Positions 1 through 43,324 of a DNA stretch of 64,000 nucleotides are shown here, piece by piece. The position numbers and the translations under genes were made by a program. Numbering within the stretch: position 1 is the first letter of the stretch; every line of letters starts with the position of its first letter. The notes under the pieces were generated by a model, which did not search any database, was not told the origin of the DNA, and worked only from the letters and a program-made list of their open reading frames with translations. The stretch is from Schmidtea polychroa (lineage: Eukaryota), in assembly GCA_044892525.1 (NCBI GenBank), contig CM097885.1, positions 11,844,001 through 11,908,000 on the forward strand. The letters are read 5' to 3'.

Positions 1-3000
1 CAACTCCTAAATAATGCCCAAATGCGTAACTTAAGTTTTTTCCTAGCCACGCGCGCTTATCATCATTATTACTTAGGGCAATTTTCGAATTTTTAAAAGT
101 AAAAAGTTGGTGATTTCTAGTACCTATTCTAGTCTGCGGTACAGAAATCACCTGATTTGAATTATAGCAATTTAGATATGTTTCATGATTTATTGATGTC
201 CGAGATAATTTAACCCCCTTCGCTTTTACCGTTTCCTTACTACCTAAAAGACTATAACATTTAGGGCGTAAGAAAACCCATTCAGAATACCCTAATCCCT
301 TGCTCTCATCTTTAAACTTCCCGATGACCGAGTCAAGGTTCCTACTATACAAGGGGTGGGTTGGATCGTAATTTGACGTATCCAATAAATTATCTGAGAT
401 CATTTGAGGTAATAGAGTTGTTAATTTTAAATTTTTAATTTCTAAAAAGAAACTGTCGGTATCACCGGCAATAATATTAATTATATATTTATATTGGCGT
501 CTGTACTTCTCCAAATCAATATATTGGAGCTGGTACATCCGCAGTTTAGACAGATCTAGTACTGTTTGACCAATGTAGCTAGGTCTGTCTAAACAAATCA
601 CATCTTTTTCCAAATGTGCCGCAATCAGATCGTTATCGATTCTTATGGACTTTCTGAAAGTCGGCTTTGAGGAGTATACTATCATCTTTTCGGATGAATT
701 ACACAACCTCAAATTCATTCTTTTTTTCAAATTTTCAACCGATTTACCGTAAAGAGAGTTATTATACAATTTAAACAAGTCCCTATATATCTCGCTAGTA
801 GACTGAGATCGTAAAGTGGTGTTGGTGTCTATGTAGGATTTAAAGATAGGTCCTTGTTTAAACTTTATACACCTATGAATATTTACAACAACCGCACCTA
901 ATTCTATATACAATTTGAGAAGCCTCCAATGAAGAACATAGTTCCTCTTTGGCCAATGCGTAAGCATAAGCTTCTCAACTTTTGAATTAGGTGGGCACAA
1001 CTTTTCCGGCGCAAGCGGAAAATCATTCAAAAAGTCATGCACACATTCCGGAATATCGATATCGACCTCCATAGTATACCCATATGGAAGGTTATCAATA
1101 TCCGTGTTCATACATTCAAGTAAAACATCATTCAAGTTATTATTCACCCAAGAAAAATCACCATACGGAAGATTTTGGCTAAGAGCCCAACCATACAGAT
1201 TATTTATATCAATGTACAATAATTCTGTATCATCTGAAGTAGCCGTGTAATGTTTGTTAACAAATGTTAACCCACCCCGGATACCTCCCTCATAGAAATT
1301 ATACATTTCCATGTCCTGCAGAAGTTCTATTGGTTCCGTTAATGTCATAAGCGCTGAGGCCCATGACATACCGGGAATCCCGTAGAAATTAAGAGGATCC
1401 AGACCATTGTAAGCAATTGCCTTACCGCGGAATTGCTGAAAATAATCTGCGAGGAGGTATACGTCCAATTTTAGGTAGATTAACATATAATCTAACAAAT
1501 TATTACAGTTATGCTGACTCCAAATTAGTTGAGCCTCAGCGTACTGATCTTCCGTAACATCAGACCAAATAGGAGGTAATTCTAAAGTCGATTCAAGAAC
1601 ATCTAAAGAAGTAGCGAAATTATATGGAAAGATACCTTTAGAGTGAATCATCGACCCTTGAAAGACAGACGAAGTCAAAGGAAAAGTAGTTAAGGTTTTC
1701 ACAGCTTTTGCTAAAGAACAATTAACAAATTGCATGCTGTCAATAAAACGAACAGGCAATTTGTTAATATATGCAATTAAAGATATAAATTTTTCTGTAG
1801 AGGTAGGTATAATATTAAGTTCCCAAAGGGGAAAATCACTGAGACCATGTTTTAAAATATGGTGGAGGTCATAGCCTCGTAAATTATGAAAGACAACAGG
1901 TAACAATTTATTAATCCTGCGAGAGACATTGCATTTCCTACATGCCGCTCCGACATATCTACCTGTAAAATGACAATGATCTCTCACAGGATTAATAATA
2001 GATTTTTTACACAAATAACAAATAGTGGAAGATCGAAAGGCACGCTCCTGAGCAAAAGACAAAGTAGACATACCTTTATGACCTTGAAGTTCATAATATG
2101 GCAGGACAATTGTGACAGCAATTTCCTCCACTTTCCTCAAAAAATCCAAAATACAATTAGGTCCAAAAAAATAATAATAAAATTTTGTGTTTGTATAATT
2201 ATTAATTAATAAAAGACCTGCTGATATGGGTAAATGTATTTGATGATATGTTTCATGTTCTGGTAAAACCGATTCAAAATCGGCATAAATTACGAAGGGA
2301 GGTGTAACTGTTTTTGCGTAATCTGTGAATAATAAATCTTTATTTTTAGGAAGTGTATACAAGGTTGTGCCAGTCTGATTTTTACAGCATAGAGCAACAT
2401 GCTGATCGAAAGCATTCTTATATCTAAAGCCATTTAAACAACGTGGGCACCAGTTACACCTTATTTGAACGTTAACATTTTCATTTTCATGACAATTCAT
2501 TAATTTGTCCAAGTCTGTCACGGCCGTATAATGATATTTATCTTTATTACTCAAAAGTAATAAATAAATTGGTCTACCGTCTATAACCTTGGAGCGATGT
2601 ACTATATTAAGATGAGGGTGGTGAGCTACATAATCCTCAGAAATATCTAAATCAGAACTGGCTGGATTATACGAAAGAACGTTTATGCTTAAATTTAAAT
2701 CACGATTTTTCCTTTCAAATTTAGGAATGTTGCATAGCCTCATCGGGCAATCGGTGTCTTCGTCATAATTTAATAGAGGTAAAAATTCTATATATTTGGC
2801 GGCTCTTTGGTGATTACGACCTATTTCTTCTCTTTTTAAAAGTGCAAGAATGCTATACAAGAAGCACTTATGGTCGTTGTTTTTAACGTTAATTATTGCA
2901 TGTTTTAATTTTAAAGCCGATGGGGTTTTTATATAGCTATGTCCGGATAATCTACTAACGGGTGCGTATTTCGTTAAAATAAAATCTATTTCTAAAATAT

Positions 3001-4232
3001 TCACTACTCGCCACCCGCTTCCTAAATAGGTGAATTGCTCAATCTTTTCATTTAATTTGCTCACCCCCTCGTTTATAAAGTTTGATGTAAAAACTTGAGC
3101 ATTGTTTGAAAAATAATTATCCCGGATCTCCCCATCTTTTTCAAATTTAATTAAAATTGTGAATTGTATTTTTACATTGCCCATCTTTTCTATTTCCTCT
3201 ATTAATCTATCTTCAATTTTTGATGTTAGGGCTATTTTAACCAGGTTTTCATTTCTTATATTAAATTTTAATGTTTTACGTGATCCATTCAAATCGGATT
3301 CTACCGTAGGTTCAAACAAAGAGCCGCCTATTTGAAATATGTTGAAAGACGTTGAAGCTACACATTCATCATTGATGACTATCACTTCTTGTTGTGTAAT
3401 GGGTGATTGTTGTGTAATGGGTGCTTGTTGTGTAAACGATGTTGAAGCTACACATTCATCTTTGCTGATGACTATCACTTCAGGTCGCGATAATTTATTA
3501 GGAATGCAATTTTTAATTAAACCAGCAGGTCTTTTAATAGAATCTTTTTTAATATTTATAATATCTTTTTTAATAATATTTATAGTATCTTTTTTAATAG
3601 CATCTTTTTTAATAGAATCTGTTTTTTCTTTTATAATATTTTTTTTAATATTTTTTAAATCTTTTTTAATATCTTTTTTTATATCTTTTTTAATAGTATT
3701 TTTTGGTAAATTTTTTGATAAATTTTTTTGTAATTTTTTATTTATTTTTTTAAATAAAACATTTTTTGATATCGAAAATTGCCCTAAGTGACAATGATGT
3801 TTATTAAAAAATTCCCTATATTTTACTTTTTCTCTCGTTACACATTTGGGGCATATAAAAAAGTTGAGCGAATTAAACGTCTTTTTGTAGTATTTTCTCA
3901 TTGTGCGATGACATTTATCGCTATGTCCATTTGCAGCTTGGCAATAATTTGGGTATAGTTTACCTGTTAAATAATAAAATTAAAGTTTTATTTTTTTTCT
4001 AATTGTTATTAATTGTTACATCTATAAGGATTTATCATCATTTGTTATTTAATTCAAATGAACTATATAACAAATGATGATAAATCCTTATAGAAAATAG
4101 GTTAATATATTCGAGAGAATATTAGAGAGATTTTAGTAGATAGGTCAGATTATTATATGAATATGTTAAATATTAGAGAGATTTTAGTAGATAGGTCAGA
4201 TTATTATATGAATATTAGACGAGTCAGATTAA

Positions 4233-6698: not shown

Positions 6699-7084
6699 TT
6701 AAACATCAAATTTTTTGTACAATAACCAAGCTAAACAATGTTGACCGCATGTTTGGGTCAAAGGATTTTGAAACATAGTTTTATTATACACAATAGGTTT
6801 TCCCATTGTTTGTAGTTTTGATATCAACAAAGCTGGGTAATAGAAACCCATAGGATCGAACACGAATATATTACCAGGTTTCACATATATAGCTATCCAA
6901 TGTTCTCCACCAAGATGAGACGATTGAGTATTGACGATTATTGCTTGATTATTGCTCAAATATGGAATTTTATCAAGAGGAAAAACTCCAACAAATTCAT
7001 TTCCCAATATCTGTTTTCCGATTTTATTGACCTGAACAGAACTATTTAAATAAATCCAGAGTATAAAAAAACAACTTACTCCAT
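6699..7084 (-). CDS. Adenain-like (C5) cysteine maturation protease; exons 7084-7080 and 7041-6699
   Basis: Motifs IVNT..GEHW, FDPMG and Q....CGQHC. The track ORF starts at TTG; a 38-nt GTAAG..TAG intron supplies the ATG (MDSVQVNKIGKQILGNEF). Confidence 0.9.
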
Positions 7085-7111
7085 GATAACTTTTTGTGTT
7101 TCTGTATACAT

Positions 7112-8335
7112 TTATACCAACACGGTTCTATTTGCAGTAATTTGAACTTCATTTTCAAATACTCCATATATTATAACATGTACTGGTTCTGTAATGGCTC
7201 TTGCAAACTTTATATCCAGTCGTAAATTCCCGTTTTGTGGTAATTGACTTTGATTTAAATCAAAATCAGGGGCTAAAACAAATGTAAAAAATGGGTATTT
7301 GCTTTTAAAATCTTCTAGTGTTATTCCGCAATTCAAATTTTTATCTAAATAACCCAGATTTCTAACAATACTCTGCATATATGTCGCACAGTAATTGTCA
7401 TTCTCGAAATCTTGAATATATGTTTCTCTATAATCAGTATTTTTCGACAAAGTCAATGATGTAACACCAAAGTTTTTGAAAATTGAGCTGGACGCAGTAT
7501 ATGATCCATTATATTGTGCTTCACTTTGAAATGTTATCAGAATAAAATTAGGCATTCTTCTGTCACCAAATATTTGTTCTTTATAGAATGATGAAGCACC
7601 TTTAGCAATAGCAAATTGTACAATTTCCTTTGTTTTTAATGGATAAATTGCATGTTTTGAATTAAGACCCAATTGATGACCTGCTAATACTGAGGGGTCT
7701 ACTCGAACTCTTCTCACCAATAATTTTGCATCAACTAATTGACATATTGGTGTAGTAGTTGCACTAGTAAGAGATAATGCAGAATCAGACCTTTTCAGTC
7801 TAATATGTACATTAACCCCCGGTAGTAAATATTTCGGTTGATCCATAAAATCAAGTTGTAACGATGAGCACATGGTGAAAACCTTTGAGCCTTTTACCCA
7901 CTTTTTTCTTTCATAATCTGCTGCTGCATAGCCCATAGGAGTAAGACATGTATTTTTAGTATCGGAATTGTAATTTAAAATAGTTTCTATTAATGCCTTG
8001 TGAATGAATGTATTATTTCCGCCCTCAATCTTAATATTATTAAATCCCAACACTGCATCTTTAAAAAGAGTATGAAACAGGAAATTGTTCGGTATTACAT
8101 CTGCATTGGCATCCAAAACTTTTCTATCTTTATCTACAACCTTAATCTGAACAGTCAATAAAGTATCATTCAAATCTAAATATTCGGTTTGCGAACCATT
8201 AATATAAAACTCGATATCATTTCTACTATCGGTAATTGAATTCATAGGAAAAACTTCCTCAAATGCCCCAAATTCTATTACAGCCTGGGGCGACGGTCTA
8301 TCAAATATACATAATTCGGATTTACCACAAATCAT
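7112..8335 (-). CDS. Major capsid protein (double jelly-roll, PY/hexon-like)
   Basis: 407 aa. CGKSELCIF N-terminus, EYLDLNDTLL, QPKYLLPGVNVHIRL and C-terminal GNLRLDIKF are typical of Polinton MCP; position next to the protease fits. Confidence 0.9.
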   Translation of the reverse strand: MICGKSELCIFDRPSPQAVIEFGAFEEVFPMNSITDSRNDIEFYINGSQTEYLDLNDTLLTVQIKVVDKDRKVLDANADVIPNNFLFHTLFKDAVLGFNNIKIEGGNNTFIHKALIETILNYNSDTKNTCLTPMGYAAADYERKKWVKGSKVFTMCSSLQLDFMDQPKYLLPGVNVHIRLKRSDSALSLTSATTTPICQLVDAKLLVRRVRVDPSVLAGHQLGLNSKHAIYPLKTKEIVQFAIAKGASSFYKEQIFGDRRMPNFILITFQSEAQYNGSYTASSSIFKNFGVTSLTLSKNTDYRETYIQDFENDNYCATYMQSIVRNLGYLDKNLNCGITLEDFKSKYPFFTFVLAPDFDLNQSQLPQNGNLRLDIKFARAITEPVHVIIYGVFENEVQITANRTVLV

Positions 8336-8703
8336 TTTGCAAATATAGTTCCATGTCCTTTCATTCGTTTGTTTATACGTGATATTCCATGTCTTTTACG
8401 TTTTGGAGCATGAGCTGGAGCTGGAGCTGGAGCTGGTTTTTGAAACATACCTGCAACCCCGGGTAAAACTTTCCCTAATTCTGCTAAAGCATTTGTTTTT
8501 AGAGATGGTAATATTTTCTGTTCATTCATAATAACATCTTTTGCAGTTTTCATACCAAAACTACCGATACGTTTAAGAATAGGCAATGCAAATCTACCTA
8601 TTGTTCTCAACCATCCTGATCCGTACTGTTTACCAATAAAATATGGTAAATCACCACCAGATTGGCTACCACTATACATACTAATAATATCAGAATTAGC
8701 CAT
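8332..8703 (-). CDS. Small Polinton core/PW-like precursor protein
   Basis: QSGG and QYGSG motifs followed by an amphipathic helix (WLRTIGRFALPILKRIG) and a basic tail. It overlaps the MCP start (ATGA). Confidence 0.7.
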   Translation of the reverse strand: MANSDIISMYSGSQSGGDLPYFIGKQYGSGWLRTIGRFALPILKRIGSFGMKTAKDVIMNEQKILPSLKTNALAELGKVLPGVAGMFQKPAPAPAPAHAPKRKRHGISRINKRMKGHGTIFAK

Positions 8704-9708
8704 TTATTTTACGAAAATGTAATGTCAAATGAGTTTTTGAGCCTTTTGGAAATTCGATTAATTGACCAGAATCATCTCTTATATTTATTTCTATATTGTT
8801 TATACAAGATGTTGAAACAGGTAAATACATGGGATTTTCTACATTGATTTGTACAACTTCATCTTGATCATGTTTTTCAATCCATATAGATTTCATTAAA
8901 GGTACACTAGAATCGCCAACAATAACTGGTTCCACGATATTACTGTAAATGAACATTTGCTGATGATGTTTAAGGATTTTCGGTTTGTTTGTTCCTTCAC
9001 AAATTTGTTCATTTTGTGTACATACTGGTTTAGTCAATCCTAATGTTTTTGTCAAATTTGAGTCAAATTTAACTTGACTAAGATTAGAATTTATACTAAA
9101 TCTAAATACTTTATCTTTTTGAAGCTCAAAAACTGTTAAAATATCGCTACAATTGTCACCTAAATAAGTTTGTAATTGTTCGAGGTCTGTAATATATAAA
9201 TTATCTTTAAAAGTATATGCATGCTCTGTTATTTCAATGTATGACAGCTTAAATTTGAATTCCACTAAATTATTAGTTTTCGGAAGTGTAGAGAGATTTA
9301 TTTTGACTGTATCATTAAATACATTACGTAAATCAGTAAATCCAAGACGTTTAGCATCAGCCACTGTAGAAAATATAATTTCGAATGACTTATTCAAGCA
9401 ATTCATGTATAAATATTGACCATCATCATAAATTATAGGTTTCCTTGATTTCGATGAACTCGTCAAGTTATAATTATCTTTATCAATAAGAACATTAATA
9501 TATTCCGTTACTGCTACTTTCTTATTATATTCAATAACAGATTTGCTATAGATTGGGAATAAATTGTATACAAATGTAAAATCCAAAAGAGCAACTTCCC
9601 AGTCATTATCCAAATAGATAGGGTTTTGGAGTTCGATGATGAATTTGCTTGATTTTCTGGATGAATTAATGGACAACTATTGCTCGGCAAAATAGTATAA
9701 AAATTCAC
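8696..9708 (-). pseudogene. Minor capsid protein (penton, PX); GTG start and a frameshift near 9646-9650
   Basis: The N-terminal motif FYTILPSNS..HPENQA is in a different frame from KFIIELQNPIYLDNDWEVAL. The C-terminus MFIYSNIVEP..GDS..PLM..NPMYLPV..IEINIRDDSG..LHFRK is intact. Confidence 0.8.
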
Positions 9709-10337
9709 TTTACTAGGTCTTTTGCTGATATCCATGACGGGTTTTGATAACCATGCCATTTGACATAGTATTGTTTATCCTTGCCGACCTTTTTAGTTTT
9801 CAATATTTTTTGAATTCTAAATACTTTTGGGGGAGGAATGACTTGTAATTCCTGCTCATAAAATTTCCCCTGTAAAATATTATTATCATTGTCTTTGATG
9901 ACATACATTACAGGATTCTGTTTAGTATTTATTTTTGAAATTACAAAGACTTCATCACTCCAATTTGTATCAAAATTTTTAATAAATGGTGATGCACTAA
10001 TTTTACTAATTCTAACATGGTCACCGACTTTATATTTAGGTTTTGCAATTTTTACAGATTTCTTAGAAGTCAATGATGTTTTTGATGTAATATCAACCGG
10101 TCTCAATCCATTCAGTCCTCGATGTGATGAATGATTATAACTTGTTATTATTTTCGGTAAAGCATTTACCCATTTTTTATTACCTTGATGCACGAACAAT
10201 TTCTTTAATCGATCTCTCAATGTTCGATTAAATCTTTCAACATGGGCAGCTTTGTATTGAGAATGTACCGAGTAGTGATTTATTTTCAGTTTATCGAGGA
10301 TTTGCTTAACTTTACTATTGTAGAATTCTTTACCTAA

Positions 10338-10417
<80 letters not shown>

Positions 10418-10805
10418 CTAAATCTGTTTGCAAGTTATTAGGATGTCCGTCTTTAAATAAAATATTAATTGCCTTGGACATTTCTTCTGCAGATTTTGCC
10501 TTGACCGGTATTGCTCGTGCAAACCTGCTGTATACATTAATACATGTTAAAATATATTTATTCCCATTGTTAATTTTCGAATATGGTATCATCTCCATCA
10601 AATCCATTTGCCATAAATCGTCAATACCAAATGTTTTATACGCTCTTGTTGGAAATCTTTTCCGCATTGGTTTGTTCAAACTGTACGCAAGCTGATCTGA
10701 TAACCACTTCTGGGTTTCTTTTTTCGAATTCGGAACTCTTTTGTTTAATTTTGCCACTCCACCGAAACCGGCTTCGTCTTCTGGGTTCGTCCAAATCTTC
10801 TCCAT
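9705..10805 (-). CDS. int: Retroviral-like (rve) integrase with C-terminal chromodomain; intron 10417-10334
   Basis: Motifs WQMDL, TDLG|KEF, HVERFNRTL, YNHSSH and YYVKWHGY. The poly-Ile run is an 84-nt GT-AG intron. Confidence 0.92.
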
Positions 10806-10863
10806 TACAACAAGAAGATTTAAAATTAAATTTAATGTCGGGCAATGAAGGATTAGCACCCAT
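10636..10863 (-). CDS. Putative myristoylated small protein overprinted on the integrase 5' end
   Basis: MGANPS fits MGxxxS, followed by SSCC. The ATG lies 3 nt after the upstream stop in context ACAATGG. Confidence 0.55.
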   Translation of the reverse strand: MGANPSLPDIKFNFKSSCCNGEDLDEPRRRSRFRWSGKIKQKSSEFEKRNPEVVIRSACVQFEQTNAEKISNKSV

Positions 10864-10866
10864 TGT

Positions 10867-11400
10867 TTATGATTGATTTCCTACAACTCCACCTAATAAT
10901 GATAATGCCAGAGGTATTAATGCGCCAATAAATCCACCTTGTTGTTTATATATAATTTTTCTCATTTGCTTACGATTTTTATTATTTACTAAAGATAACA
11001 ATGGTTTCCTATGTTTGCTCAATAAATGCTTTTTTGATTTACTGATTTTAATTTTGCCTTTGACTACTTTAAGTATAATATTGAGTAAATCATCGACAAC
11101 AAAATTTGGGAATGATTGCAATATATTCATTCTTTTCATACTCGGGGCCTTTAACAATGCATTAAAAAATGGAAAACTGCGATGATTTTTAACTACTTTT
11201 TTACCGGTTTTACGGATTTTACGGGTTTTACGTTTAGGTTTAGGATTTTTCGAAATAAGATTCATTGCAGAGAAATTTTCAGTTACAAGTTTTTTAGATG
11301 GTGTATAACTAGTTGTTGGTGGAACTTTTGGAACTTTAATAGTCTTTCTAATACCTTTTCTTAATTTCCTAATATTTTTCACCCTTGCTTTTAGAAACAT
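10867..11400 (-). CDS. Basic Polinton conserved protein (PM-like core precursor)
   Basis: Lys/Arg-rich, ending in KQQGGFIGALIPLALSLLGG; lies between the ATPase and integrase. Confidence 0.7.
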   Translation of the reverse strand: MFLKARVKNIRKLRKGIRKTIKVPKVPPTTSYTPSKKLVTENFSAMNLISKNPKPKRKTRKIRKTGKKVVKNHRSFPFFNALLKAPSMKRMNILQSFPNFVVDDLLNIILKVVKGKIKISKSKKHLLSKHRKPLLSLVNNKNRKQMRKIIYKQQGGFIGALIPLALSLLGGVVGNQS

Positions 11401-11418: not shown

Positions 11419-12045
11419 TCAACTTTGTTTATAAACCATGGCACCTTTTGGGTTGAAAATATCTGTTTTTACACGTAAATCATCGGGACATTGTTGTGTG
11501 AAATCAAGAAATATATATCCATGAGGTATTTTTGTAGCATCTTGAAATGCACTGATAAGAAAATTACGATTGTTAGGGTATGCTTGACGTGCAAGAAAAT
11601 CAATCACTGTTGCATCTCTAGGATTCTTGAAAATGACTAAATACTGTACATTTAAATTACGTGTTCGATGTGCCCCACCTTGATGAAATAGATTTTGAGT
11701 TATGAAAATAACTGTTACACCGACATGTCTGCTGATCTTTGTAAATAAATTATTAAAATCTTTTTCTTTATTAGCTTCTTGATACAAATCATCGATAATA
11801 ATGACATCACCTTTCTTTAATCGGCTGGACCAGTTTTTATCGAATCCCTTTACTATTTTCATGTTTTTTAATTTACAGAAACTTGATTGAGTTAATCCAT
11901 GTTCTTCATCAGCACCCCTATGCCAATAAATCCTGTTGAATTTTGATTTGAATAAATTTGATTTTAGTAATTTACAAACAAATAATGTTTTTCCACTACC
12001 ACTCGGACCAACGATTTGGTATACTGCATCATTTCTTAATTCCAT
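11419..12045 (-). CDS. FtsK/A32-like genome packaging ATPase
   Basis: Walker A GPSGSGKT, Walker B IIIDD, plus SRH, ITQNLF and FKNPRD. Confidence 0.93.
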   Translation of the reverse strand: MELRNDAVYQIVGPSGSGKTLFVCKLLKSNLFKSKFNRIYWHRGADEEHGLTQSSFCKLKNMKIVKGFDKNWSSRLKKGDVIIIDDLYQEANKEKDFNNLFTKISRHVGVTVIFITQNLFHQGGAHRTRNLNVQYLVIFKNPRDATVIDFLARQAYPNNRNFLISAFQDATKIPHGYIFLDFTQQCPDDLRVKTDIFNPKGAMVYKQS

Positions 12046-12144
12046 TTCAAAGATTTTATAAATGTGTATTTGTTTATATTCGATGATTTAATGAACTCAT
12101 GCTCAATTTGTATATAAAGACTAATTTTCATAAATGATTTAATA

Positions 12145-12582
12145 ATGTTAGCAAATATAAATTATCGAGGAAATTTTGATGTATCGAATATGAGGTTCCC
12201 ACCAGGGAAACCTCAGCAAATTATCGATAGAAGCGGGAAATATCCGATAATATTTTTCAAGACTGGTAAATGCAGAATCATGGGATGTAAGAAACCTTTG
12301 GATATTAATAAATTACAATATCGAATAAATAATATTAAAATCCAATCAATTACCGTTACTATGGATATGGGACATAGTATCAATCTATATAACATGTCGA
12401 AAAAATGTGATTGTATGTTTGAACCGGAATTGTTTCCGGCACTAAGACTAATAAAATATAACCCTATATGTGTCAACGTGTTTGCTAGTGGAAAGGTTGT
12501 CATGTTGGGGTTGAGAAATTTGGAGTATAGAGAATTTGTTGACAATGTTCGAAATGAGATAATTTCATTGGTCGATTTTTAA
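12145..12582 (+). CDS. TATA-binding protein (TBP)-like protein, 145 aa
   Basis: KIQSI..FEPELFPAL..VFASGKVVMLG resembles the TBP C-terminal repeat (FKIQN..YEPELFPGL..IFVSGKVVLTG). IIFFKTGKCRIMGCK resembles the N-terminal repeat (LIFSSGKMVCTGAK). Confidence 0.8.
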   Translation: MLANINYRGNFDVSNMRFPPGKPQQIIDRSGKYPIIFFKTGKCRIMGCKKPLDINKLQYRINNIKIQSITVTMDMGHSINLYNMSKKCDCMFEPELFPALRLIKYNPICVNVFASGKVVMLGLRNLEYREFVDNVRNEIISLVDF

Positions 12583-12653: not shown

Positions 12654-13068
12654 ATGTACAAAATACCAAGCTCTGCAACCCTCATGAAGGATATTGACGA
12701 TTCCGGTAAATTTAAAATTTTTATTTTCACATTATTTACTATTTATTATTTTAGAAAAATATATCAAAGTTATGATCAATAGGATAAAATATTATTATCC
12801 GCAAATCAATGAAATTATCAAGGATAGAGAAGCAGAAATAATTCCGGACCTCATTTTCTACACAACACAAATTAGAATAATGGAAGTATTTCACCAGTTT
12901 CTGTGGGATTTAAAGATAAACAGAACAATCAAACAAATGGAGCCAGAGTACCAGTGCATCATCGGATGCTCATGCTGTGCCGATCGATATCGGCGATATG
13001 TCGAATGGGAGTTAGTGAAAACTCTGCGAAGGTTTCACTACTCCCGGATTGTAGATTTGGGTTATTAA
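12654..13068 (+). CDS. Hypothetical protein with Cys cluster; exons 12654-12705 and 12755-13068
   Basis: ATG plus a 49-nt phase-1 GT-AG intron joins the track ORF in frame; CIIGCSCC motif; AATAAA at the stop. Confidence 0.6.
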
Positions 13069-13492: not shown

Positions 13493-13903
13493 ATGACCAA
13501 GAAAATTTCAAGCACCGAAAAACCAAAAGAAATGGTACAACCAGTTCAAATGTTCCACAACTACAAAATGTATTTTTTGAAAGAAGAAATCAATATGAAA
13601 TTGGTTGCACCAGTCAAGCTAATTCCAACTAAATTCGAATTCTTATCCGGCACGCTTTCAATGATTGATGTCAAAACTATTGATGATGTTTTTAAACGGA
13701 TAGATTCGAATCTATCGTGTAATCAACATGCATGGTTCAACAATAGATATGCAAGATTTTATGATGCTTTTGATGAAATCAGTTTCAAAGAAAATGAAAA
13801 TTGGTATATAACAATAGCAATCCAGGGATATAAAGTTGATAATAATGATGTATATTCTCCTATTTGGAAAATTATGTCTGCTAGACTTTCACAAATATTT
13901 TAA
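13493..13903 (+). CDS. Hypothetical protein, 136 aa
   Basis: ATG ORF with GATTGG (~13424) and TATAAA (~13452) upstream and AATAAA downstream. Confidence 0.65.
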   Translation: MTKKISSTEKPKEMVQPVQMFHNYKMYFLKEEINMKLVAPVKLIPTKFEFLSGTLSMIDVKTIDDVFKRIDSNLSCNQHAWFNNRYARFYDAFDEISFKENENWYITIAIQGYKVDNNDVYSPIWKIMSARLSQIF

Positions 13904-14483: not shown

Positions 14484-14998
14484 TTATTTAAAAAAACGAC
14501 ATAAAACATATAAAATAGCAACACCTGTTGCAAGTTTTAAATAGTTTTTAAATTGGATTTTTTGCTGATCTAATTCTTTTGCATTTCTGGCGAGTCGATT
14601 CAGCACGCCCCATCCGCCATTGGCTTCAATCCATGGCTGAAACTTTGACTTGATTATCTAGAAAATATATATTAATAAAATATAGATTATAAAAGTATTA
14701 CTTCTTGAGACCACTGATAATAGTGCTCGGAATCCAATAGGCTTTTTTCAATTATTATCTTCATATAAGCGAACCCTACTAATATTCGGGTCCACTTCAT
14801 CTCCTCGTCGCATAAGCAATTAAATATTCTATTAAAATAGAATTTCTTTGTTTCGAGGGAATCGGAATTGAGGACGTCCTCATAATCAATGTGATTACCT
14901 TCTATAATCTTTTCGGTCCGATCGACCAGGAAAATTAGGCTTTCCATAATATTCTTGTTGATGAGTTCTCTGCACATATTTTCCATTAAATTAGACAT
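14484..14998 (-). CDS. Bcl-2-family protein, 156 aa; exons 14998-14702 and 14657-14484
   Basis: BH1-like EEMKWTRILVGFAY. After a 44-nt intron come BH2 PWIEANGGWG and a hydrophobic tail anchor LATGVAILYVLCRFFK. Confidence 0.82.
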
Positions 14999-15103: not shown

Positions 15104-15601
15104 ATGAAAACTATATTCATATTGCTAATTATTATAACGAGTGTGTGCTCACACAATACAACAATAACAGTGGAGTCTTTTAATAAATCAATATGTGTTT
15201 GTCCGAATACAGCCAAGTTGATGGATATTTTATATATTCTCGACAAACCAAAATAGTCAAAGCATCCAGGAAAAAGAATATCTCAAAGATTGGAGAATTT
15301 AGAAAACAGTTATGAACTATCATTTGAATATATACAAAATATAAAATTTGAATTGATTGATCATATTAAGGTTTTCAATAACTCTATTGTTGAAAATAAA
15401 ATGAATATGAAAATAATTGATAAGAAGCATGATTATTTGTTAAAAAAGATTGAATTATTATTAAGAGAAATTCAAACAATCAAAGGATCAATAGAATCTC
15501 TGAAGATCAATTCAACGTTACCAATTTCAAACAATATTGCTGCGAATAGTACATCAATATTTAGTTTACCTTTGTTAATTTTACATTATTTTATTGTTTA
15601 A
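15104..15601 (+). pseudogene. Secreted/GPI-type coiled-coil glycoprotein gene with an in-frame TAG at 15254-15256
   Basis: Signal-peptide-like MKTIFILLIIITSVCS; sequons NTT, NKS and NST x2; heptad-like middle; hydrophobic C-terminus. The frame is the same on both sides of the stop. Confidence 0.6.
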
Positions 15602-15726
15602 ATAAATGTATGTTTTGTTGATTTGTTGATTTGTTGAGCGTGACCAGTACCCTTGTGAGCATTACCCATAGGGGGACAAAATATTTTGTCGGATAGACTA
15701 GGAGTATATAGACTCGGAGTATATAG

Positions 15727-15883
<157 letters not shown>

Positions 15884-16044
15884 GTAACAAGATATATAGC
15901 TCATTCGAAAGGTCTTGGATTGAGCTTTAAAATGAGCTATCGATTATTAATTTTCGTTGGCGGGAACTTTGAAAAAATTAAAAATAAAATAATAATATTT
16001 TTAAAAATAATAATAAAAATAATAATATTTTTAAAAATAATAAT

Positions 16045-16810
16045 ATGACCTTGATGAGTCATCGCGATGACTCATATGACCTTGGCAATGACCTTGGATG
16101 AGTCATGCGACCTTGAAAATGACCTTGATGAGTCATAGGATGACTCAGATGACCTTGAAAATGACCTTGAAAATTTTTGATGAGTCATGGTATGAGTCAT
16201 ATGACCTTGAAAAAATTTCGATGAGTCATAGTATGAGTCATATGACCCTGAGAAATTTTTTTTCAAGGTCATATGAGTCATAGTATGAGTCATTTGACCT
16301 TGAGAAAATTTTTTCAAGGTCACATGACTCATACTATGACTCATATGACCTTGAAAATGACCTTGATGAGTCATAGGATGAGTCAGATGACCTTGAAAAA
16401 AATTTTTCAAGGCCATATGAGTCATATTATGACTCATTTGCCCTTGAAAATGACCTTGATGAGTCATAATATGAGTCATGGTCTTTGTTTAAATGACCTT
16501 GAGAATTTTGATGAGTCATACTATGAGTCATACGACCTTGGGAAAAATTTTCAAGGTCATATGAGTCATAGTATGACTCATACGACCTTGAAAATGACCT
16601 TGATGAGTCATGGTCTTTGTTTAAATGACCTTGAAAAATTTTTTTTGACCTTGATGAGTCATATTATGAGTCATACGACCTTGAAAATGACCTTGATGAG
16701 TCATAGGATGAGTCATGGTCTTTGTTTAAATGACCTTGAGAATTTTGATGAGTCATACTATGAGTCATGGTCTTTGTTTCAATGACCTTGATGAGTCATA
16801 TGTCTTTGTT
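16045..16810. repeat. Subterminal repeat array of ATGAGTCAT/ATGACTCAT and TGACCTTG motifs (probable TIR interior of element 1)
   Basis: Dozens of interleaved copies directly inside the terminus. Confidence 0.85.
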
Positions 16811-17139
16811 TAAAAAAAATTTGTACTTTTAGACTTAGCATATTTTTGAAAAATATGATGACGGGGGGGGGGTACTGTGCTAGCGGTGCCCTGTGCCAGC
16901 AGTGCCCAATCCATCTACTGACATTAACTTGCAGGTCACTCTATTTTCCAAGATTTAAGTTATTTTTTCAATATTGCAGGCTAAAACTCGTGTTTACTAC
17001 ATGTCGTTTTTGCCATAAGAAATAAACTCACAAAACCACCATCAAATACCACAGTCAATATGTAAAGAACATTCATCGGCATTGCGTCCAAGTTGCAAAA
17101 CTAAGTGTTGAAGTTATCAAGATCAAGAATAATATATAT

Positions 17140-20100
17140 TAGGGTGGGTCGAAAATTTTTTTTTTCTCCAAACATGCCTAAAAAGTTGTGCTTATGCTAG
17201 AAAATGAAATATCCCTGCAAAAGACTGCTGTTTAAAAGGGTTTACAGGTCCCAACTTTTGTTTGTATGTATTAGTACTATCCCAGTAAAAATGCTCGCAC
17301 ATGTGCCATTGTAAATTCATCCTGCAAGCAGTCACACGCTTGCAGAAAGACCATTTTTGACATGCTCTATTCACAAGTCCAAGCTAACGCGTGCATGTAT
17401 AGAGAGGTTAATTCACGGAAGCACCTTCACACAAGCACTCACAAAGACAATTTCTTCTGAACAATACTAACACACACACTACAGTCAACACATAATCCAC
17501 ATGGATACTACTAGTCAGTCTAAACTCAGATAATTTAATTTGTTTCGATTGGATGTCAAGTGTTTGCTGGACATAATTAAAAAAGTTAACTTGATGATTC
17601 ACTTTTATTTTGCCAGAGCTGAGTACAGAAGAGCAGTTATGAAGGGACAGAGAAATAAGCAATTTCGCAAAACAAGAAGTAAATCACGTCATTGTCTGTT
17701 TGGTCAAACTTGTGAACTACCCAGAAACCAATTACCTACTTGTGAAGATGTGTTTCGTGATTACTGTTACAATGAGAAATGTACGCAATTTCATACTGGC
17801 TTTAACGAACAAGCAACTCTTCTCGCAAATAAGGTGAAGGAAATTTATATGAAGGCAAGTATCCCAACTGTTGAGTTCAGTAGTATTGTGGTTCGTGTCA
17901 AGCGACTAATATCAAAAGTGCGTGAATTAGAGAAGTATCCAGTATGCAAGAGGTCATCTGCCAAATTTCAAGATAAGTTAAGCTCGTTTTCCAAATTGTT
18001 TGACATATGTTGCTGCAAATGTTTTAATGATGGTGCTCGTGGAAGAAGTCAGTGTACATGCCGATTGGCCTTGAAAATTCCTACCTTAGAGTGGGAGTTC
18101 TGGATTGACCAACAAACTACCAGAAACATGAAAATCGGAAATACGGACAGACAGGAAACCTCAAAATTGAAGAGAAAACAAACGAAAAGCAGCCCTACAG
18201 GAAAAGGAAAACAAATGAAAAATGAAATAATGGACACTGAAGTTAACGATCTACATCCGACCTCAAGAAGTGACACGGAGAGTGAAGCCGCTAGTGATGA
18301 AAGTAAAGATAAGTTAGACAATTCAACAGAAAGCTCAGAGTCAAGCGTAGAAGAATGTGATGAATTTCAAAATAGAAGACATTATCCTGAATTAAGTAAA
18401 GCTGTTGACAGATGTGGTGTGAGCAACAGAGACACGTGTTTGCTAGTAAACGCTTTTCTGAAAGATATGGAACTGTTATCCTCTCAAACAATCATCGATC
18501 CCGCAAAATTACGGCGTCAGAGAAAGTACTGGAGGGAGAGAGAAATTGAACAGCATTCAGCAGAAGCGAAAAACTTGATTTGCCTCGATTTCGACGGGAA
18601 ACAAGATTCCACCTTACTTCATAGAAGGATCCTAAAAGAGGAGCATTATGTGATTGTCGCCTTTCCAGGGGATACATATATCGATCATGTTGTACCTCAA
18701 AGTAGTAAAGCTGTGGATATTGGCAAAGAAATCATGTCAATCATCGTTAGCACGCAGTCCTCACTGACCCTTCAAGCAATTGTGTGCGATGGAACCAATA
18801 CAAACACCGGAAAAAATAATGGAATAATCAGAAGACTCGAAAAAAGCCTAGGGCGACCTCTACAATGGCTGATATGCTTGTTGCATGCAAATGAATTGCC
18901 ATTCAGGAAGTATTTTTCAGTCGTCGATGGTGGAGAAACAAAAGGTCCAAAAACGTCATGTGGTGAAATAGGAAGCGTTCTTGATTTTGATCCAAAAGAC
19001 AAGCCCGTAGTAGCCTTTATGTCCCTTCCTGGAAAGGTCGTAGATATTAGTGAAAATGTCAAGAAAGAATTGAACACTGATCAATTGTATTTCCTCAGAG
19101 TATGCTTGGCAGTCCAGAAAGGGTACCACAACAACAAGGATGTCCCTTTTCTACAAATGGCACAACCAGGAAATTTGAATCACAGTCGCTGGCTAACGAA
19201 AGCTAATAGAATTCTGCGACTATATATGTCCGAAACTGCTCCATCTGAACCTCTCATGCGAATAGTGAAATTTATTGTCAATTTCTATGGACCGTCATGG
19301 TTTTATATAAAGATTCACTCGTCATGCCAAGATGGTGCAAGAAATATTTTTTATATGCTCCAACTTCTGCAGGATTTGGATCCATCAGACCAAGAAATCA
19401 TCTTTCCTGTCATTCAGAACAACAATTACTTCTCACATCCAGAAAATATACTCCTAGCTGCTGTTGGTGATGATGATGAAGAAATCAGAAAGTTTGCAAC
19501 AGAAAAAATCATAACTGCAAGACAAAATTTTCTCCCTTCCGAAGTGATTCGCACTATGGACAAGAATACTGTCTTTCTTCAGTCGTCTGCTACATCATAT
19601 GCTGACATGATTGACTGGACAAAATGTAATTTGACGCCTCCCCCTCTTTTATCTCATATATTGGATCATGAATTGAAGATGAATAAGAAAATTACATTAG
19701 AACAATTTCCCTGTCATTCTCAAGCCGTTGAAAGAGCCATCAAAGATGTTTCTTCTGCCAGTTGCAAAGTGTTTGGTCACAAGTCCAGACATGGTATGGT
19801 ACTACTGTGTAAAAAATCAAGGAAGGAATTGCCCAAGGTGCAAAGCAAAGCTGATTTCATGTGACTTCTTTTTATGCCCTCGCTAATACATTTCTAAACT
19901 TTTGGCTGGATGTTTTTAATAAAAAATAATTTCGAAAGTTGATTTTTGTCTTTGAAAAGGATAATTCAAATTTGGCCCTTCCTAATCACTGACGTTGTCA
20001 GGATATATTTCAATGCGGGATGAGGACACAGAATATACTATCTCAGCCCAAGAGAGTAAATAATATACTTATAAGCTCTTAAGAAAGCTACATCTAAATA

Positions 20101-24100: not shown

Positions 24101-26044
24101 TGTCATAATTAACTGTAATGTATTCTTCATTTTTTAATGAATTATAAAAAGAAACTGAGAAATATAAAATTAAAATTAAACTTTTATTTTCTAATTTTAA
24201 TTGTTATTTATTTCACACAAATTTTCTGCATAACTTTTTTCAGGTGTTTGTCAATTCATCTTAATTTATTTGTTTAAATCATTGGGGCTATATGAAAAAC
24301 GCTTAAAATTAATTAAAATTTCAATAATAAAATTTAAAAAATAGAAATTAAAAACAAAGTTAATCATTACAAAATATTCTGGATCCTACAAAGTATAAAT
24401 TAAAAATACAAAAAAATTAATTAATTAATTAAATAATTAAAAAATAATTTACGTCATTAATCATTATGATGGTTGCAACAAAATTGTTATTTCGCCATGC
24501 AAAAAAACAATCAGTTAAATTAATACAATTTTTATTTTTTATTTTAGAATCTTTTCAGTAGCTTTTAGAAAAAATGAGAAGTTAATGTTTAAATAGCATT
24601 TAAGTAAAAGTTAAAAAATCAAAATATGTAAAAATCGCATTTGTTGTCGAAAAAAGAGAGATTCAGGTGTAGTTAGGAGAGCCGTAACAAGGGTGGTGCG
24701 AGCGGTGGAGTCGCACAGGGCGCACATCTGAAAGAGGTGCAAAATTGGGATGTAACATTTTTTTAATGTTATCAAAATTTAACAAAATATAAATAAAATA
24801 ATTATCAAATGGCATTCACGAAACAAAATGGCAAATTAGGTAGCCTGTCTTTAACATTACTGTTGGACTGGTCTATTAGGTGTGTATTTTGTAAAATATT
24901 AGTTCACAAAATGGGTTCTTGAGTAGGTAGTTAGGAGCCTACGGGAACAATAGGGGGGGGGGTAAAAAATGTTGCAAACTTTTGATTGCATAACTTTTTC
25001 CGTAGACATTTTTTGATTACATAATTGTTGCCGTAATGCCCAATGTTTTCTGGGATTTTAAATACAAAATTTTTTTTTCAATAAACAAGCCAAGGATAAA
25101 TATTATTTGGGTGGGTCTCCTTGGTCCTGAGAATTTCAATAGAAAAAGGTAGTCTTCAATAAAAAAGCATGGATTTTTCACACAATAGTGAGGGGATCTT
25201 CTTGGTCATGAGAATTTCAATAGAAAAGATGGTTTACATTAAAAACACATAGTAAATTTTTAAAATAAAGCAAATTATTGGTCTAAAATTTAAAAATAAA
25301 GTAAATGATGGGTCTAAAAAATTTAAGTAAATCAGGGTTCAGATTTTTTTTGAAATAAAGTAAATTATGGTCTAAATAAGTAAATTATGGGCTAAGATTT
25401 TTCAATTAAAGTAAATTATGGTCAAAATTTTAAAATTAAAGTAAATTAAGGTTCTAAAAATTAAATTACAGTAATTAATGGTCCAAATTTTTAAATTAAA
25501 GTAAATTTAGGTTCTAAAATATTAAATTAAAGTAAATAATTGTTCAAAATTTAAAATTAAAGTTAATTAAGGGCTCAACTAAGTAAATTATGGTTCAAAT
25601 TTTTAAATTAAGTAAATAATGGTTCTAAAAATTAAAGTAAATTAAGGTCCTAAAAAATTAAATTACAGTAAATAATGGGCACAAATAACTAAATTAAGGT
25701 TCTAAAAAATTAAATTAAAGTTAATTAAGGTCCAAATTTTAAAATTAAGTAATCAATGGTAAAAAAAAATTTTAAATTAAAGTTAAATAAGTAAATTAAA
25801 GTAATAATTTTTAAATAAGTAAATTAAAGTAAGATTTTAAAATTTATTAACAAAAAGTTGAAATAATAGAAGGTGTTTGAGAATTGAAATTTTTTAATGA
25901 AAATTTTAATGAAATATTTTTCAATGATAATTTTTAATGAAAATTTTAATGAAATAATTTTTTAAGTAATTTTAGATGGAAATTTTTATGGAATATTTTT
26001 CAATGTTAATTTTTAATGGAAATTTTAATAGAATAATTTTTTTT

Positions 26045-26123
<79 letters not shown>

Positions 26124-26315
26124 TATTAGTAATAATATATCAACCAAATACTATACAACACATAAAAAATTAACTAAACACATAAAAATAACTAGACACA
26201 TAACAAAACATATAAACATTAACTAAACACATAAAAATGAACTAGACACATAACAAACATAAAAATTTACCAAACAAATAACAAATGTATAGATATAAAC
26301 TTTTATTTAATAAAA

Positions 26316-29300
26316 TTAGTCCTCATCGGACAAAATAACGTCATCGATATCGATGTCATCTTCTCCAAAATCTTCATTTAATTCTTCCTCATCTTCTCCA
26401 AAATCTTCATTAAATTCTTCCTCATCTTCTCCAAAATCTTCATTTAATTCTTCCTCATCTTCTCCAACAATTTCTGCAACATTTTCTCTAATATTAAATT
26501 CACTTAATCTTACATGCCCATATGCAAGACTAGTATTTTCCCCCACCCAAACCCTTTTGTCGTCTTTGTTTGTTAGTGCTATTTTTGTGTTTTTAATTGT
26601 AAAAATTTGATGATTTTTGCTTGTTATTTTAGTCTGAGGAACCGAAAAAATCTGGTTAGTGTTATAACAATCCAGGTATGACTGATGTTTTATGTCACTA
26701 CCTTTCAATGTTACACCTTTAGCCTTTTTTGTTTCCTCATCACCCAACAAGCTATAACATTTAGGTCTAAGAAAAACCCATTCCTTATATTTAAGACCTT
26801 TATTCTCGTCTTTGAACTTTCCAATGACTGAATCAAGGTTCTTACTATATAAGGAATGACAACTATTGTAATTGGAAGTATCTAATAAATTATCTCGAAT
26901 CATTGCAGGTAAAAGAACCTCGAGTTTACAGTTAATGACTTCGAGGAAAAAAGAATCTGTATCACCTGCAACGATATTAATTTTACAATTAAACTCATTG
27001 CGAAATGATTCCAGATCCTTATATTGCAATTCATACATTCTAAGTTTAGATAGATCAAGTACAGATTGACCAATGTAACTTGGTCTATCTAAACATATAG
27101 AATCTGAATTCAATAATGCCGCGATTAAATTATCGTCTATTTTAATAGATTTTTTAAAAGTTGGCTTCGAAGAATATTTAACTAATTTATCGGCTGTTGT
27201 ACAAAGACGAAGATTCATTCTTCTCTTTAAATTTTCAACTGTTTTGCCGTATAAACTGTTATTTAGCAATTTATAATAATTTTTATCTAAGTTATTTATG
27301 CTTTTTGACCTTAATTCTGTATTTGTATCTATATATTTTTTAAAAATTGGAGATTGCTTAAATCTTACACCCCTATTTACACGTGTTACTTTAACACCAA
27401 GTTCCAAATATAATTTTAATAATCTCCAATGAATAACATAATTAGATTTTGGAAGATGAGTTAATAATAATTTTTCAACCTTAGACCCAGCAGGTTTCAT
27501 TTTTTCAGCAGCTACAGGGAAATCATCCAACTTATCATGAAGCTCAGAAGGAATTACAAGATCAACTTCAAGAGTGTATCCATAAGACAAAGATTCAAGA
27601 TTTAAATTCCTACATTCATCTATTATTAAATCAAATCCATCAAGAACCCAACTAAATTCGCCACAAGGTAATGATTGACTTAAAGCCCAACCATAAAGAT
27701 TATTAATATCTATATAAAGTAACTCGGTGTTCTCGTCGGTTTTTACGTAATGCTTATTGACAAAAGTAAGACCGCCTCTTATTCCACCCTCATAAAAGCT
27801 AAACATTTCGTTTTCAGTTATGAGCTCAATTGGTTCATTTAGAGACATTAATGCAGAAGACCAAGACATACCTGGAATTCCGAAATAATTCAATGGTTCC
27901 AATCTATTGTGAGCAATGGATTTCAACCGAAACTGATGAAAGAAATCAGCCAAAAGAAAACAATCAAGTTTTAGGTAGATCATCATATAATCTAATAAAG
28001 TTACGCAATTAGTTTCTACCCAAATCTCCTGAGCTTTTTCATACTCAAGCTCAGTGACACCTTCCCAGATTGGTGGTAATTCATAAGTAGTTTGGAGAAT
28101 ATCTAAAGAAGTGGCGAAATTATAAGGGAAGATTCCTTTTTCAGAAACTATAGTACCAGAAAAAGCAGAATTAGTAAAAGGCAAAGAATTCAAAGTTTTG
28201 ACTGCTTTAGCTAAAGAATCATTGACAAATTGATAAGAATCAATGAATCTTAAGCTAATTTTGCCTAAATGAGCAATCAAAGAAATAAATTTTTCACTCG
28301 TTATTGGGATGCAACCTAAAGTCCAATTTTTAAATTTATTTAATCCATATTTAAGTATATGATGCATATCGTATCCCTTCAAGTTATGAAATACGATAGG
28401 CAAAATTTTATTTATTTTCCTATTTATGTTACATGTGCTACAAGCTGCACCCAAGTATTTGCCCGTAAAATGATCGTGATCTCTAACAGGATCGACGATA
28501 GATTTCAAACAAAGATAACAAACGGAAGCACTAAGAAATTGATGTTGTTCAATTTTCGTTAATTTTATCATTGGTTTCCTACCCATTTTATAATAAAAAG
28601 GAAGAACCTTATTTAATGCTATATCCTCTATAGCACTTAAAAAACTCTCGACGCAATCTAAACCTATGAATTGTTGATATGATTTAGATCCGTCAAAGTT
28701 ATTTACTAGTAAAAGACCAGCAGATATTGGCATGTGTCGTTGGAAATGAAGATTATCAGAAGGTAAAATAGCCTCAAAATCGGCATAAACTACAAAAGGA
28801 GGAGTTACTGTTTTCGACCAGTCAGTAAACTGTAAGAATTTATTTTGAGGGAAAGTGTAAAGAGTTGTTCCTAATTGATTACGTTTACATAATATTTCAT
28901 GTTTTTCCAGTGCGTGTTTATACCTAAACCCATTCAAACACCGATGGCACCATAATGATTGTATGCGTGTAGGACAACTAGTTTTTATGTGGCAATTCAG
29001 TAACCTATTTAAATTACTTATAGCGACGTAATGGAAATTGTTTCCTTTATTTAATAATAGTAAATTAATTACAGTTCCATTTAAAACTTTGGAACGATGT
29101 ATAATGTCTAAATGTGGATGTTTTAAAACGTAATTATCTGTTAATTGTTTGCTATTGTCATAAGAAAAAACATTAATTATTAAGCCGGGATTTTTGGCCT
29201 CAAATTTTCTAATGTCTTTTAATTTCATGGGTAAATCTAATGGATTATATATTAAGTCTGATAAATTATAACTGGACGTCCTATTTCTATATTGTCTAAC

Positions 29301-33004: not shown

Positions 33005-33311
33005 AGTAGGTAGTTAGTGGCCCGCTGCAAATGCAAGCCTTTTTTTATGCGGCACGATTTTTTTTTTACGGCAACTTTTGATTGCGCAATTGTTGCAACT
33101 TGTTTTTTTTTTTGTATTGAAAATTCTAGAAAAAAAAATAATACAGTTGCGTAATAATCCAAAAAAAAAATACAACAAAAAAAACTAGTTGCAACAATTG
33201 CGTAATAAAAAGTTGCAACAAAAAAAAGTTGCAACAAAAAAAAAGTTGCAACAACCCCCCCCCCCCCCCCGGGGGGGGGTAATTGTTGCAGCGGGCCACT
33301 ATCTACCTACT
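33005..33311. other. Central junction module bounded by terminus-like inverted repeats
   Basis: AGTAGGTAGTTAGTGGCCCGCTGCAA...TTGCAGCGGGCCACTATCTACCTACT, with an asymmetric interior containing GTTGCAAC repeats and a poly-C/poly-G run. Confidence 0.8.
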
Positions 33312-35449: not shown

Positions 35450-35520
35450 GATTGGTTAGAATTTGTTCCTATAAACAATAATAATCTATAAACAATAATA
35501 ATCTATAAACAATAATCAAT
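35450..35520 (+). promoter_or_regulatory. Putative Pol II promoter of the right-arm pPolB (inverted CCAAT plus triplicated TATAAACAAT)
   Basis: GATTGG at ~35450 and three TATAAA units 45-90 nt before the predicted ATG at 35557. The element-1 pPolB shows the same layout. Confidence 0.5.
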
Positions 35521-35556
35521 CATTATTCACATTTAACAAATAATTAACCTTTAAAA

Positions 35557-39994: not shown

Positions 39995-40186
39995 TTTTAT
40001 TAAATAAAAGTTTATATCTATACATTTGTTATTTGTTTGGTAAATTTTTATGTTTGTTATGTGTCTAGTTCATTTTTATGTGTTTAGTTAATGTTTATAT
40101 GTTTTGTTATGTGTCTAGTTATTTTTATGTGTTTAGTTAATTTTTTATGTGTTGTATAGTATTTGGTTGATATATTATTACTAATA

Positions 40187-40247
<61 letters not shown>

Positions 40248-42795: not shown

Positions 42796-42846
<51 letters not shown>

Positions 42847-43066
42847 TTTCTCCGAGTTTATCCGACACGATATTCTGTCCCCCTAAGGGTAATGGTCACA
42901 AAGGTACTGCTAAAACTTTAACATATTATTACACACAATGTATAAAAAATATTATTAGTGTCCACACATGCTACAAGTTAGTATTCCCATCGATAGCTCA
43001 TCTTAAAGTTTAGTGTAAGATCTATCTAATGATATATTATTATTATAATTGGTAAAGATGTTATTA

Positions 43067-43143
<77 letters not shown>

Positions 43144-43235: not shown

Positions 43236-43324
<89 letters not shown>

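Follow-up and report, generated by a model that had tools for sequence, protein, structure and literature searches.

A 19.4-kb Polinton in the genome of Schmidtea polychroa encodes a 145-residue protein with the two-lobed fold of TBP, whose DNA-facing residues are fixed within its own family but unlike those of cellular TBP, and the word ATAAAC precedes the virion and integrase genes of the same elements. The reading that we prefer, to which we give a probability of roughly 0.65, is that this viral TBP is the element's own promoter-recognition factor, which would bind ATAAAC and recruit host TFIIB and RNA polymerase II (Pol II). The stretch of DNA analysed, called the window hereafter, covers 64,000 nucleotides of contig CM097885.1 (positions 11,844,001 to 11,908,000 of assembly GCA_044892525.1), and coordinates refer to it unless another locus is named.

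The host element and its genes

The element is 19,449 bp long; it begins 2.5 kb outside the left edge of the window and ends at position 16919. Its ends are AGTAGA..TCTACT, flanked by a 6-bp target duplication; five other copies have the same ends, each with its own 6-bp duplication, and the six copies examined are all Polintons in this respect. The genes expected of a Polinton (pPolB, rve integrase, packaging ATPase and protease) are present, and the features are the following.

2..3979, minus strand: frame of a protein-primed-type family B DNA polymerase (PolB), running past the left end of the window
6699..7127, minus strand: adenovirus-type maturation protease (Peptidase_C5, E 3.6e-6)
7112..8335, minus strand: major capsid-like protein, 407 aa, so named from its size, position and conservation
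8332..8703, minus strand: ORF123, 123 aa, with TATAAAC at 8371-8377 in its tail, ahead of the major capsid gene
8696..9759, minus strand: minor-capsid-like gene, in two reading frames in this copy, so named from its position and relatives; GATAAAC at 9773-9779 upstream and TATAAAC at 8798-8804 in its tail
9705..10805, minus strand: rve integrase with chromodomain, containing a GT..AG-bounded ATT tract at about 10334-10417
10636-10863, minus strand: Met-Gly ORF, 75 aa, starting at 10863, with a Cys-Cys pair and overlapping the integrase start
10865..10871, minus strand: CATAAAC word before the small Met-Gly ORF and the integrase
10867..11400, minus strand: ORF177, basic, with a hydrophobic C-terminus and a TATAAAC word inside it (10944-10950); from its position, a likely accessory of the virion module
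11419..12045, minus strand: A32-like packaging ATPase (Pox_A32, E 3.6e-7)
11427..11433, minus strand: TATAAAC word in the 3' end of the ATPase gene, 33 nt before ORF177
12072..12078, minus strand: TATAAAC word, 33 nt before the ATPase start
12111..12119, plus strand: TATA-like word of the ordinary kind (TATATAAAG) ahead of the TBP gene, likely a host-read early promoter
12145..12582, plus strand: TBP-fold gene, 145 aa, without N-lobe H1 and H2; F38, F97, F113 and E93/E95 kept
12772..13068, plus strand: ORF98, 98 aa, Cys-containing, adjoining the TBP gene
13493..13903, plus strand: ORF136, predicted OB fold, T7 gp2.5 SSB-like, with TATAAAA and CCAAT upstream
14687..14998, minus strand: ORF103, 103 aa, with a weak Bcl-2-like match (E 0.028, below the cut-off)
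15557..16919: right terminal inverted repeat, ending ...TCTACT; its left counterpart is located 2.5 kb ahead of the window
16920..16925: target-site duplication of 6 bp, with its match at the left end

PF03175 was matched by hmmscan in the PolBs of sister copies and not in the PolB of the window itself, and Pfam gave no capsid match for the 407-aa major capsid-like protein. ORF123 is what we take to be a pX/PZ-like protein. The Met-Gly ORF has similar starts in relatives and is possibly myristoylated. The predicted fold of ORF136 is closest to phage gp2.5-type SSBs and to ASFV CP312R, with middling scores (Z 6.8-7.3), and an Atlas search returned no usable match for it. The ATT tract of the integrase recurs in 8/8 other copies, where it measures 66-189 nt and is always a multiple of three; it is likely a microsatellite intron, and vertebrate Mavericks have no introns according to PMC8097293. 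Immediately beyond the left edge of the window, the element also has a RING-finger ORF (E 5.6e-10; L152:8602-8925), placed between PolB and the left repeat.

The earlier note had placed the TBP gene divergently from the virion gene block. This is so in the window, where 99 bp separate its start from that of the ATPase gene, which is on the opposite strand; as a family trait, divergent placement is rejected, being found in 2 of the 26 metagenomic loci that hold both genes, whereas in 23 of them the two genes share a strand, with TBP upstream of the ATPase.

Outside the element the window contains two large palindromes (24953-41226 and 41918-50957), the first of which holds two inverted copies of another Polinton PolB; head-to-head PolB pairs of this kind also occur elsewhere in genome G000. 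Two long transposase-like ORFs are located at 17594-19864 (756 aa, for which Pfam gave no match) and 52048-54306 (752 aa).

A TBP fold with a reduced N-lobe

The ORF at 12145-12582 on the plus strand had been described as a Polinton-encoded TBP-like protein, and this description is borne out by a clear fold match, by the Polinton genes around it and by dN/dS values well below 1. The Pfam TBP family (PF00352) matches residues 63-125, in the second half of the protein, with E 1.3e-15 (57.4 bits, the cut-off being 22.9); 35 PDB sequences match the protein at E < 4e-6, all of them TBP or TBP fusions, and the Atlas search returned TBP clusters only. The AlphaFold2 model, built from a 97-row alignment, has a pLDDT of 95.9, and VIA-align superposes all 145 residues on residues 164-338 of human TBP (Z 13.2, rmsd 2.4). 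Since alignment to human and yeast TBP spans the whole length (rmsd 2.4-2.5), both lobes are present. Five TBP chains score Z 11.0-13.2 and the next unrelated fold Z 6.6, while the Foldseek match to TBP has E 4e-9; Pfam, VIA-align and Foldseek thus agree on the two-lobed saddle that defines the TBP family, which is the fold that the earlier note expected.

The C-lobe is complete in the model. The N-lobe has four strands and no helix of at least four residues before residue 81, and H1 and H2 are therefore gone, in agreement with the shortened N-terminal repeat without most of its helical segments that had been noticed in the sequence. These two helices, with their basic patch (TFIIA, TAF1, Mot1, Brf1), are absent from both the model and the alignment; of the five N-lobe residues that TFIIA, TAF1, Mot1 and Brf bind, three belong to helix H2 (section 12 of PMC7221094). 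Longer members of the family (160-185 aa; P0169, P0203, P0223, P0246 and L240:969-1469) retain N-lobe sequence where H1 and H2 lie and share the altered DNA face of the short forms; the one at L240:969-1469 stands ahead of a Polinton ATPase, with the motif.

DNA face and stirrup

Conservation was counted over the 97 rows of the family alignment, and the DNA-contact positions of cellular TBP were taken from Table 1 of PMC12529657 and mapped by alignment. The earlier note's statement that the C-terminal repeat keeps both intercalating Phe and the EPE stirrup holds across the family: F97 and F113 are each present in 97/97 rows, and of the stirrup glutamates (C.L3.2/C.L3.4) E93 is found in 94/97, with Asp in the other three, and E95 in 96/97, one of the two being lost in some long members. 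These glutamates contact TFIIB (section 11 of PMC7221094). In the N-lobe one intercalating Phe is kept (F38, 96/97) and the other site, cellular F99, is Pro (P23, 96/97), so that three of the canonical four phenylalanines remain; because one is lost, the affinity for DNA may be low.

The positions kept as in cellular TBP are N69, F116, L189, F190, P191 and F207. Those changed, besides F99 to P23, are V71 to N6 (91/97), V122 to R44 (96/97), T124 to M46 (97/97), N159 to S68 (93/97), V161 to T70 (90/97), L205 to N111 (97/97) and T215 to L121 (79/97). KSHV ORF24 also alters V122, T124, V161, L205 and T215 (PMC12529657).

Copies, selection and phylogeny

A search of the host genome (781 Mb) with the TBP protein gave 150 scored matches, all 99-100% identical and stop-free, which were drawn from 4,174 first-look candidates and stand for at least 150 intact copies rather than for a copy number. 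At loci selected by their ATPase the TBP gene is adjacent in 20/20 and unbroken in 17/20; 18 more ATPase loci, chosen for diversity, all have a TBP match, several of them broken, and so do 6/6 elements selected by PolB, one architecture having TBP at the far end. A TBP-free control was sought within the genome and none was found among these 38 ATPase-selected loci and six PolB-selected elements. Database relatives number 109, with 37-97% identity. Of 80 metagenomic loci, 37 contain a core Polinton gene, as do 18 of the 21 that are at least 4 kb long; TBP occurs with Polinton genes down to 35% ATPase identity and often adjoins an SSB-like gene. Scans of viral contigs with the ATPase and capsid queries found no relatives, and the TBP scan gave one 26% match on a large-virus contig, outside this Polinton TBP family.

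The TBP gene is under purifying selection, at a dN/dS of about 0.2. Against the gene of the window, dN/dS is 0.14-0.38 in 30 pairs, which are those with pS < 0.7 and come in many cases from one subfamily; over all pairs with dS 0.1-1.5 (408/4,851) the median is 0.29 and the maximum 0.67, and the median for the ATPase is 0.08 (672/2,016 pairs). The earlier note had held that disruption or neutral evolution in other copies would count against a viral gene, and the presence beside the ATPase and the dN/dS values point the other way.

In a quick tree of 70 rows, with midpoint root and few outgroups, 58 family rows form a set of their own, separate from the TBPs of the host and of cells (SH-aLRT 99), and 25 mostly short forms group together (SH-aLRT 94), the longer forms that keep the helix regions falling outside this group. 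The host has an intron-split canonical TBP, a TFIIB also split into exons and at least five divergent TBP-like loci or paralogues; an origin from these paralogues is not supported by this quick midpoint-rooted tree with its few outgroups.

Modules appear to have been swapped among copies in G000 (L161-L171 and L172-L211), where ATPases are 96-97% identical and TBP alleles only 53-61%; compared with the window, one subfamily has a dS of about 0.27 for TBP but about 1.1 for the ATPase.

The ATAAAC word and two promoter classes

Upstream regions of 130 nt, de-duplicated at 70%, were counted against shuffles. ATAAAC precedes the ATPase in 27/27 regions (shuffle mean 2.6, maximum 7; reverse strand 0), the major capsid gene in 10/10, ORF123 in 7/7, ORF177 in 2/2 and the integrase in 14/18. 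Among the other genes it is found before the protease in 1/2, ORF136 (SSB-like) in 3/17, ORF98 in 0/2, ORF89 in 0/1, ORF103 in 0/2, PolB in 0/6 and TBP itself in 4/61 (shuffle 4.4). The minor capsid count of 0/4 probably reflects mis-set starts, since other copies have ATAAAC 19-100 nt upstream. Before the ATPase the sites lie at -31 to -40 in 21/28, and in the ATPase, major capsid, ORF123 and integrase regions the word occurs on the coding strand only (opposite strand 0/64). ATAAAC is also the top 6-mer, with 60/64 regions of the motif class against 7/78 of the TBP/SSB class. In contrast, TATAAA[ATG] precedes TBP in 26/61 regions (shuffle mean 11.8, maximum 20) and shows no enrichment ahead of the ATPase (8/27, shuffle 6.6); near the start, an initiator-like word of the TCA type is found in 54/78 regions of the TBP/SSB class versus 9/64 of the motif class. 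There are therefore two promoter classes, ATAAAC before virion and integrase genes and TATAAA[ATG] with TCA before TBP and SSB genes. The structural genes thus have a dedicated non-canonical TATA word, and that they are late genes is our assumption.

Several of these sites lie in the tail of the preceding gene. The Ile-Asn pair is coded ATA AAC in 12/12 ORF123 tails and in 14/15 minor-capsid tails, against a background of 41/337; in the exceptional minor-capsid tail ATAAAC is gained in another frame, and ATPase 3' regions are flagged for the word in 24/27, in several frames. To judge from these codons, ATAAAC is kept at the DNA level inside coding sequence, and protein constraint alone is rejected as its cause by codon choice and frame changes. 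A poly(A) signal is rejected as well, because the word precedes the ATPase, where no same-strand gene lies upstream; moreover, ATAAAC reaches as far as 100 nt into coding tails, and AATAAA has no strand bias (14 versus 15).

Elements without this TBP

Five Polinton fragments were found in bacterial MAGs. The G001 fragment has a 167-aa member of the TBP family before its ATPase, and ATAAAC before the ATPase, the next ORF, the integrase and the minor and major capsid genes. G002, G003 and G004 gave no match to the TBP-family profile, and in these fragments ATAAAC precedes the ATPase in 0/4 and the major capsid gene in 0/3; since they are few, incomplete, partly from one host and mostly GC-rich (38-59%), and since G004 has ATAAAC 33 nt before one other ORF, this control is suggestive only. 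G004, a 22.9-kb Polinton-like contig, carries a different TBP (G004:C86 11777-13041; L251:574-1838, minus strand), which is without the stirrup glutamates and overlaps a TFIIB-like gene, the pair adjoining ATPase, integrase, capsid, protease and PolB genes. From this one example, Polintons may have solved transcription with their own TBP at least twice.

No TFIIB-like frame was detected in 99 family or flanking regions, nor by Pfam on the ORFs of the window, a search that a highly divergent one could escape. Intronless TFIIB-like ORFs of 301-310 aa occur in many copies in G000 (C1 23.85-24.19 Mb and C3 38.2-39.1 Mb; L132, L133, L158-L160), some of them in 7.9-kb tandem units with Polinton PolB fragments.

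Proposed function and alternative explanations

In the mechanism that we propose, host TBP would act first, on the ordinary promoters of the genes for the viral TBP, the SSB-like protein and the polymerase, so that these are transcribed, and the viral TBP would then bind (T/C)ATAAAC(A) through its altered concave face. The kept stirrup glutamates would dock TFIIB of the host, because no TFIIB was seen in the element and it encodes no RNA polymerase, and the loss of H2 would remove the surface for Mot1/BTAF1, TAF1, TFIIA and Brf1, leaving the protein free of host control and biased towards Pol II. The element would thus likely bring its own switch for capsid, packaging and integrase genes while using host Pol II. 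The odds are about even for the wider proposal that a widespread lineage of Polintons, with a genome of 19 kb, orders its transcription into an early/late cascade by means of one minimal, regulator-proof TBP with its own ATAAAC specificity and of host TFIIB. The pairing of ATAAAC with this TBP could also reflect shared descent, because all motif-positive sets were chosen for having TBP.

The earlier note had left the choice between a late-transcription factor and a TFIIB/TATA decoy. The former appears better supported, because a matching word precedes the virion and integrase genes and because the protein has a fixed DNA face of its own, and a pure TFIIB decoy fits less well, needing neither of the two. 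A fuller form of the decoy idea, in which the host reads ATAAAC, be it through canonical TBP, a divergent TBP paralogue or a forkhead protein, and the viral TBP acts as a decoy on TFIIB or on host promoters, seems to us unlikely. It would account for a near-invariant stirrup in a protein that has lost one Phe and two helices, the host does have divergent TBP-like loci, cellular TBP can presumably bind TATAAAC (PDB 1qn3), and ATAAACA fits the forkhead consensus; however, the DNA face is as fixed as the stirrup, and the motif is confined to one strand and fixed in position before the ATPase. A forkhead reader agrees poorly with GTAAACA in only 2/64 regions and C as the base before the core in 19/64, a host TBP reader with the lack of TATAAA[ATG] enrichment before the ATPase, and either of them with the missing motif before the ATPase and major capsid genes of elements without this TBP, in a small control.

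That the viral TBP binds ATAAAC and represses, either silencing the virion and integrase genes of integrated copies or setting the time of their release, would explain the same match of protein and DNA word as activation does, and the loss of H2 would also remove the TFIIA and TAF1 contacts that aid activation (section 12 of PMC7221094); nevertheless it is not clear why a repressor should need the TFIIB glutamates, and the motif occupies the place of a TATA box at genes with no second ordinary TATA, which makes repression rather improbable. There is only a slight chance that the role of the protein is to bend DNA in replication, integration or packaging and that a co-infecting large virus reads the motif as a promoter, in the way known from virophages. 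The TBP gene often neighbours an SSB-like gene, and virophages and some PLVs share promoter words with giant viruses; against this, the right terminal repeat of the window is without ATAAAC, the stirrup is kept, the GT..AG tract of the integrase suggests nuclear spliced transcription, and in the small control the motif goes together with the TBP family. A recently captured fragment of host TBP, carried along without function, is hardly credible: the gene is shortened and many copies are young and near-identical, but the dN/dS range in 30 comparisons, the separate position of the 58 family rows in the tree and the company of Polinton genes down to 35% ATPase identity all contradict it.

If the wider proposal is true, it would explain how the virion genes of Mavericks, whose particles have not been observed according to the abstract of PMC8097293, get switched, and few orthogonal TBP-promoter pairs for Pol II would be as small. 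A candidate factor with a candidate cis word makes the control of Maverick capsid genes testable. A natural TBP without two helices, with a rewired DNA face and the TFIIB contact kept, would show how little of TBP suffices and how its sequence preference can change.

Comparison with known systems

The element shares with Polintons, Mavericks and adintoviruses (PMC8502044; PMC8097293) the pPolB, rve integrase, ATPase, protease and capsid genes, the terminal inverted repeats and the 6-bp duplication. TBP is not among the eight core Polinton genes named in PMC8097293, nor among the map labels of animal adintoviruses in the text of Fig. S2 of PMC8502044; Starrett et al. (PMC8502044 and its preprint) name 'TBP' in the legend to their Fig. 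5, which deals with MELD viruses and related elements. This article and preprint, whose supplementary protein lists may hold more, were the only literature found that ties TBP to such elements, and no mention of TBP or TATA was found in the available text of PMC11161782, PMC8097293, 10.1101/2023.08.22.554363 and 10.64898/2026.06.19.733378. In the literature found, viral TBPs are known from large DNA viruses and not as a conserved system of mid-sized integrating ones.

With cellular TBP and TRF2/TBPL1 the protein has in common the two-lobed saddle, the Phe pair of the C-lobe, the Pro after F190 and the EPE stirrup. Unlike cellular TBP, it is about 30 residues shorter, has an N-lobe without H1 and H2 and eight changed DNA-contact positions, is only 24-27% identical and falls in a separate clade. 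TBPs of large DNA viruses (NCLDV and mirusviruses; PMC7221094; BFVD) have likewise the TBP fold and have lost the regulatory signature of the N-lobe; in the account of PMC7221094, however, most of them are accompanied by a viral TFIIB and about 40% retain C.L3.2, as opposed to 94/97 and no TFIIB seen in the Polinton family, whose elements have a genome of about 19 kb and no RNA polymerase.

The closest parallel in function would be the TBP mimics of beta- and gammaherpesviruses, such as KSHV ORF24 (PMC12529657), viral proteins of the TBP fold whose DNA face is more polar and altered at many of the same positions; ORF24 uses host Pol II on late genes with a non-canonical TATA word, as predicted for the Polinton TBP. 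The differences are that ORF24 has 752 aa and all four Phe and is without the TFIIB glutamates, whereas the Polinton TBP has 145 aa, three Phe and the glutamates kept, and that ORF24 makes direct contact with Pol II and depends on five further viral factors, while no partner complex was found for the Polinton TBP, which is all TBP fold and has neither the Pol II-binding N-domain nor the extra C-domain of the ORF24 type. By analogy, the Polinton TBP may thus work like a herpesvirus late-gene TBP mimic without being a member of that family.
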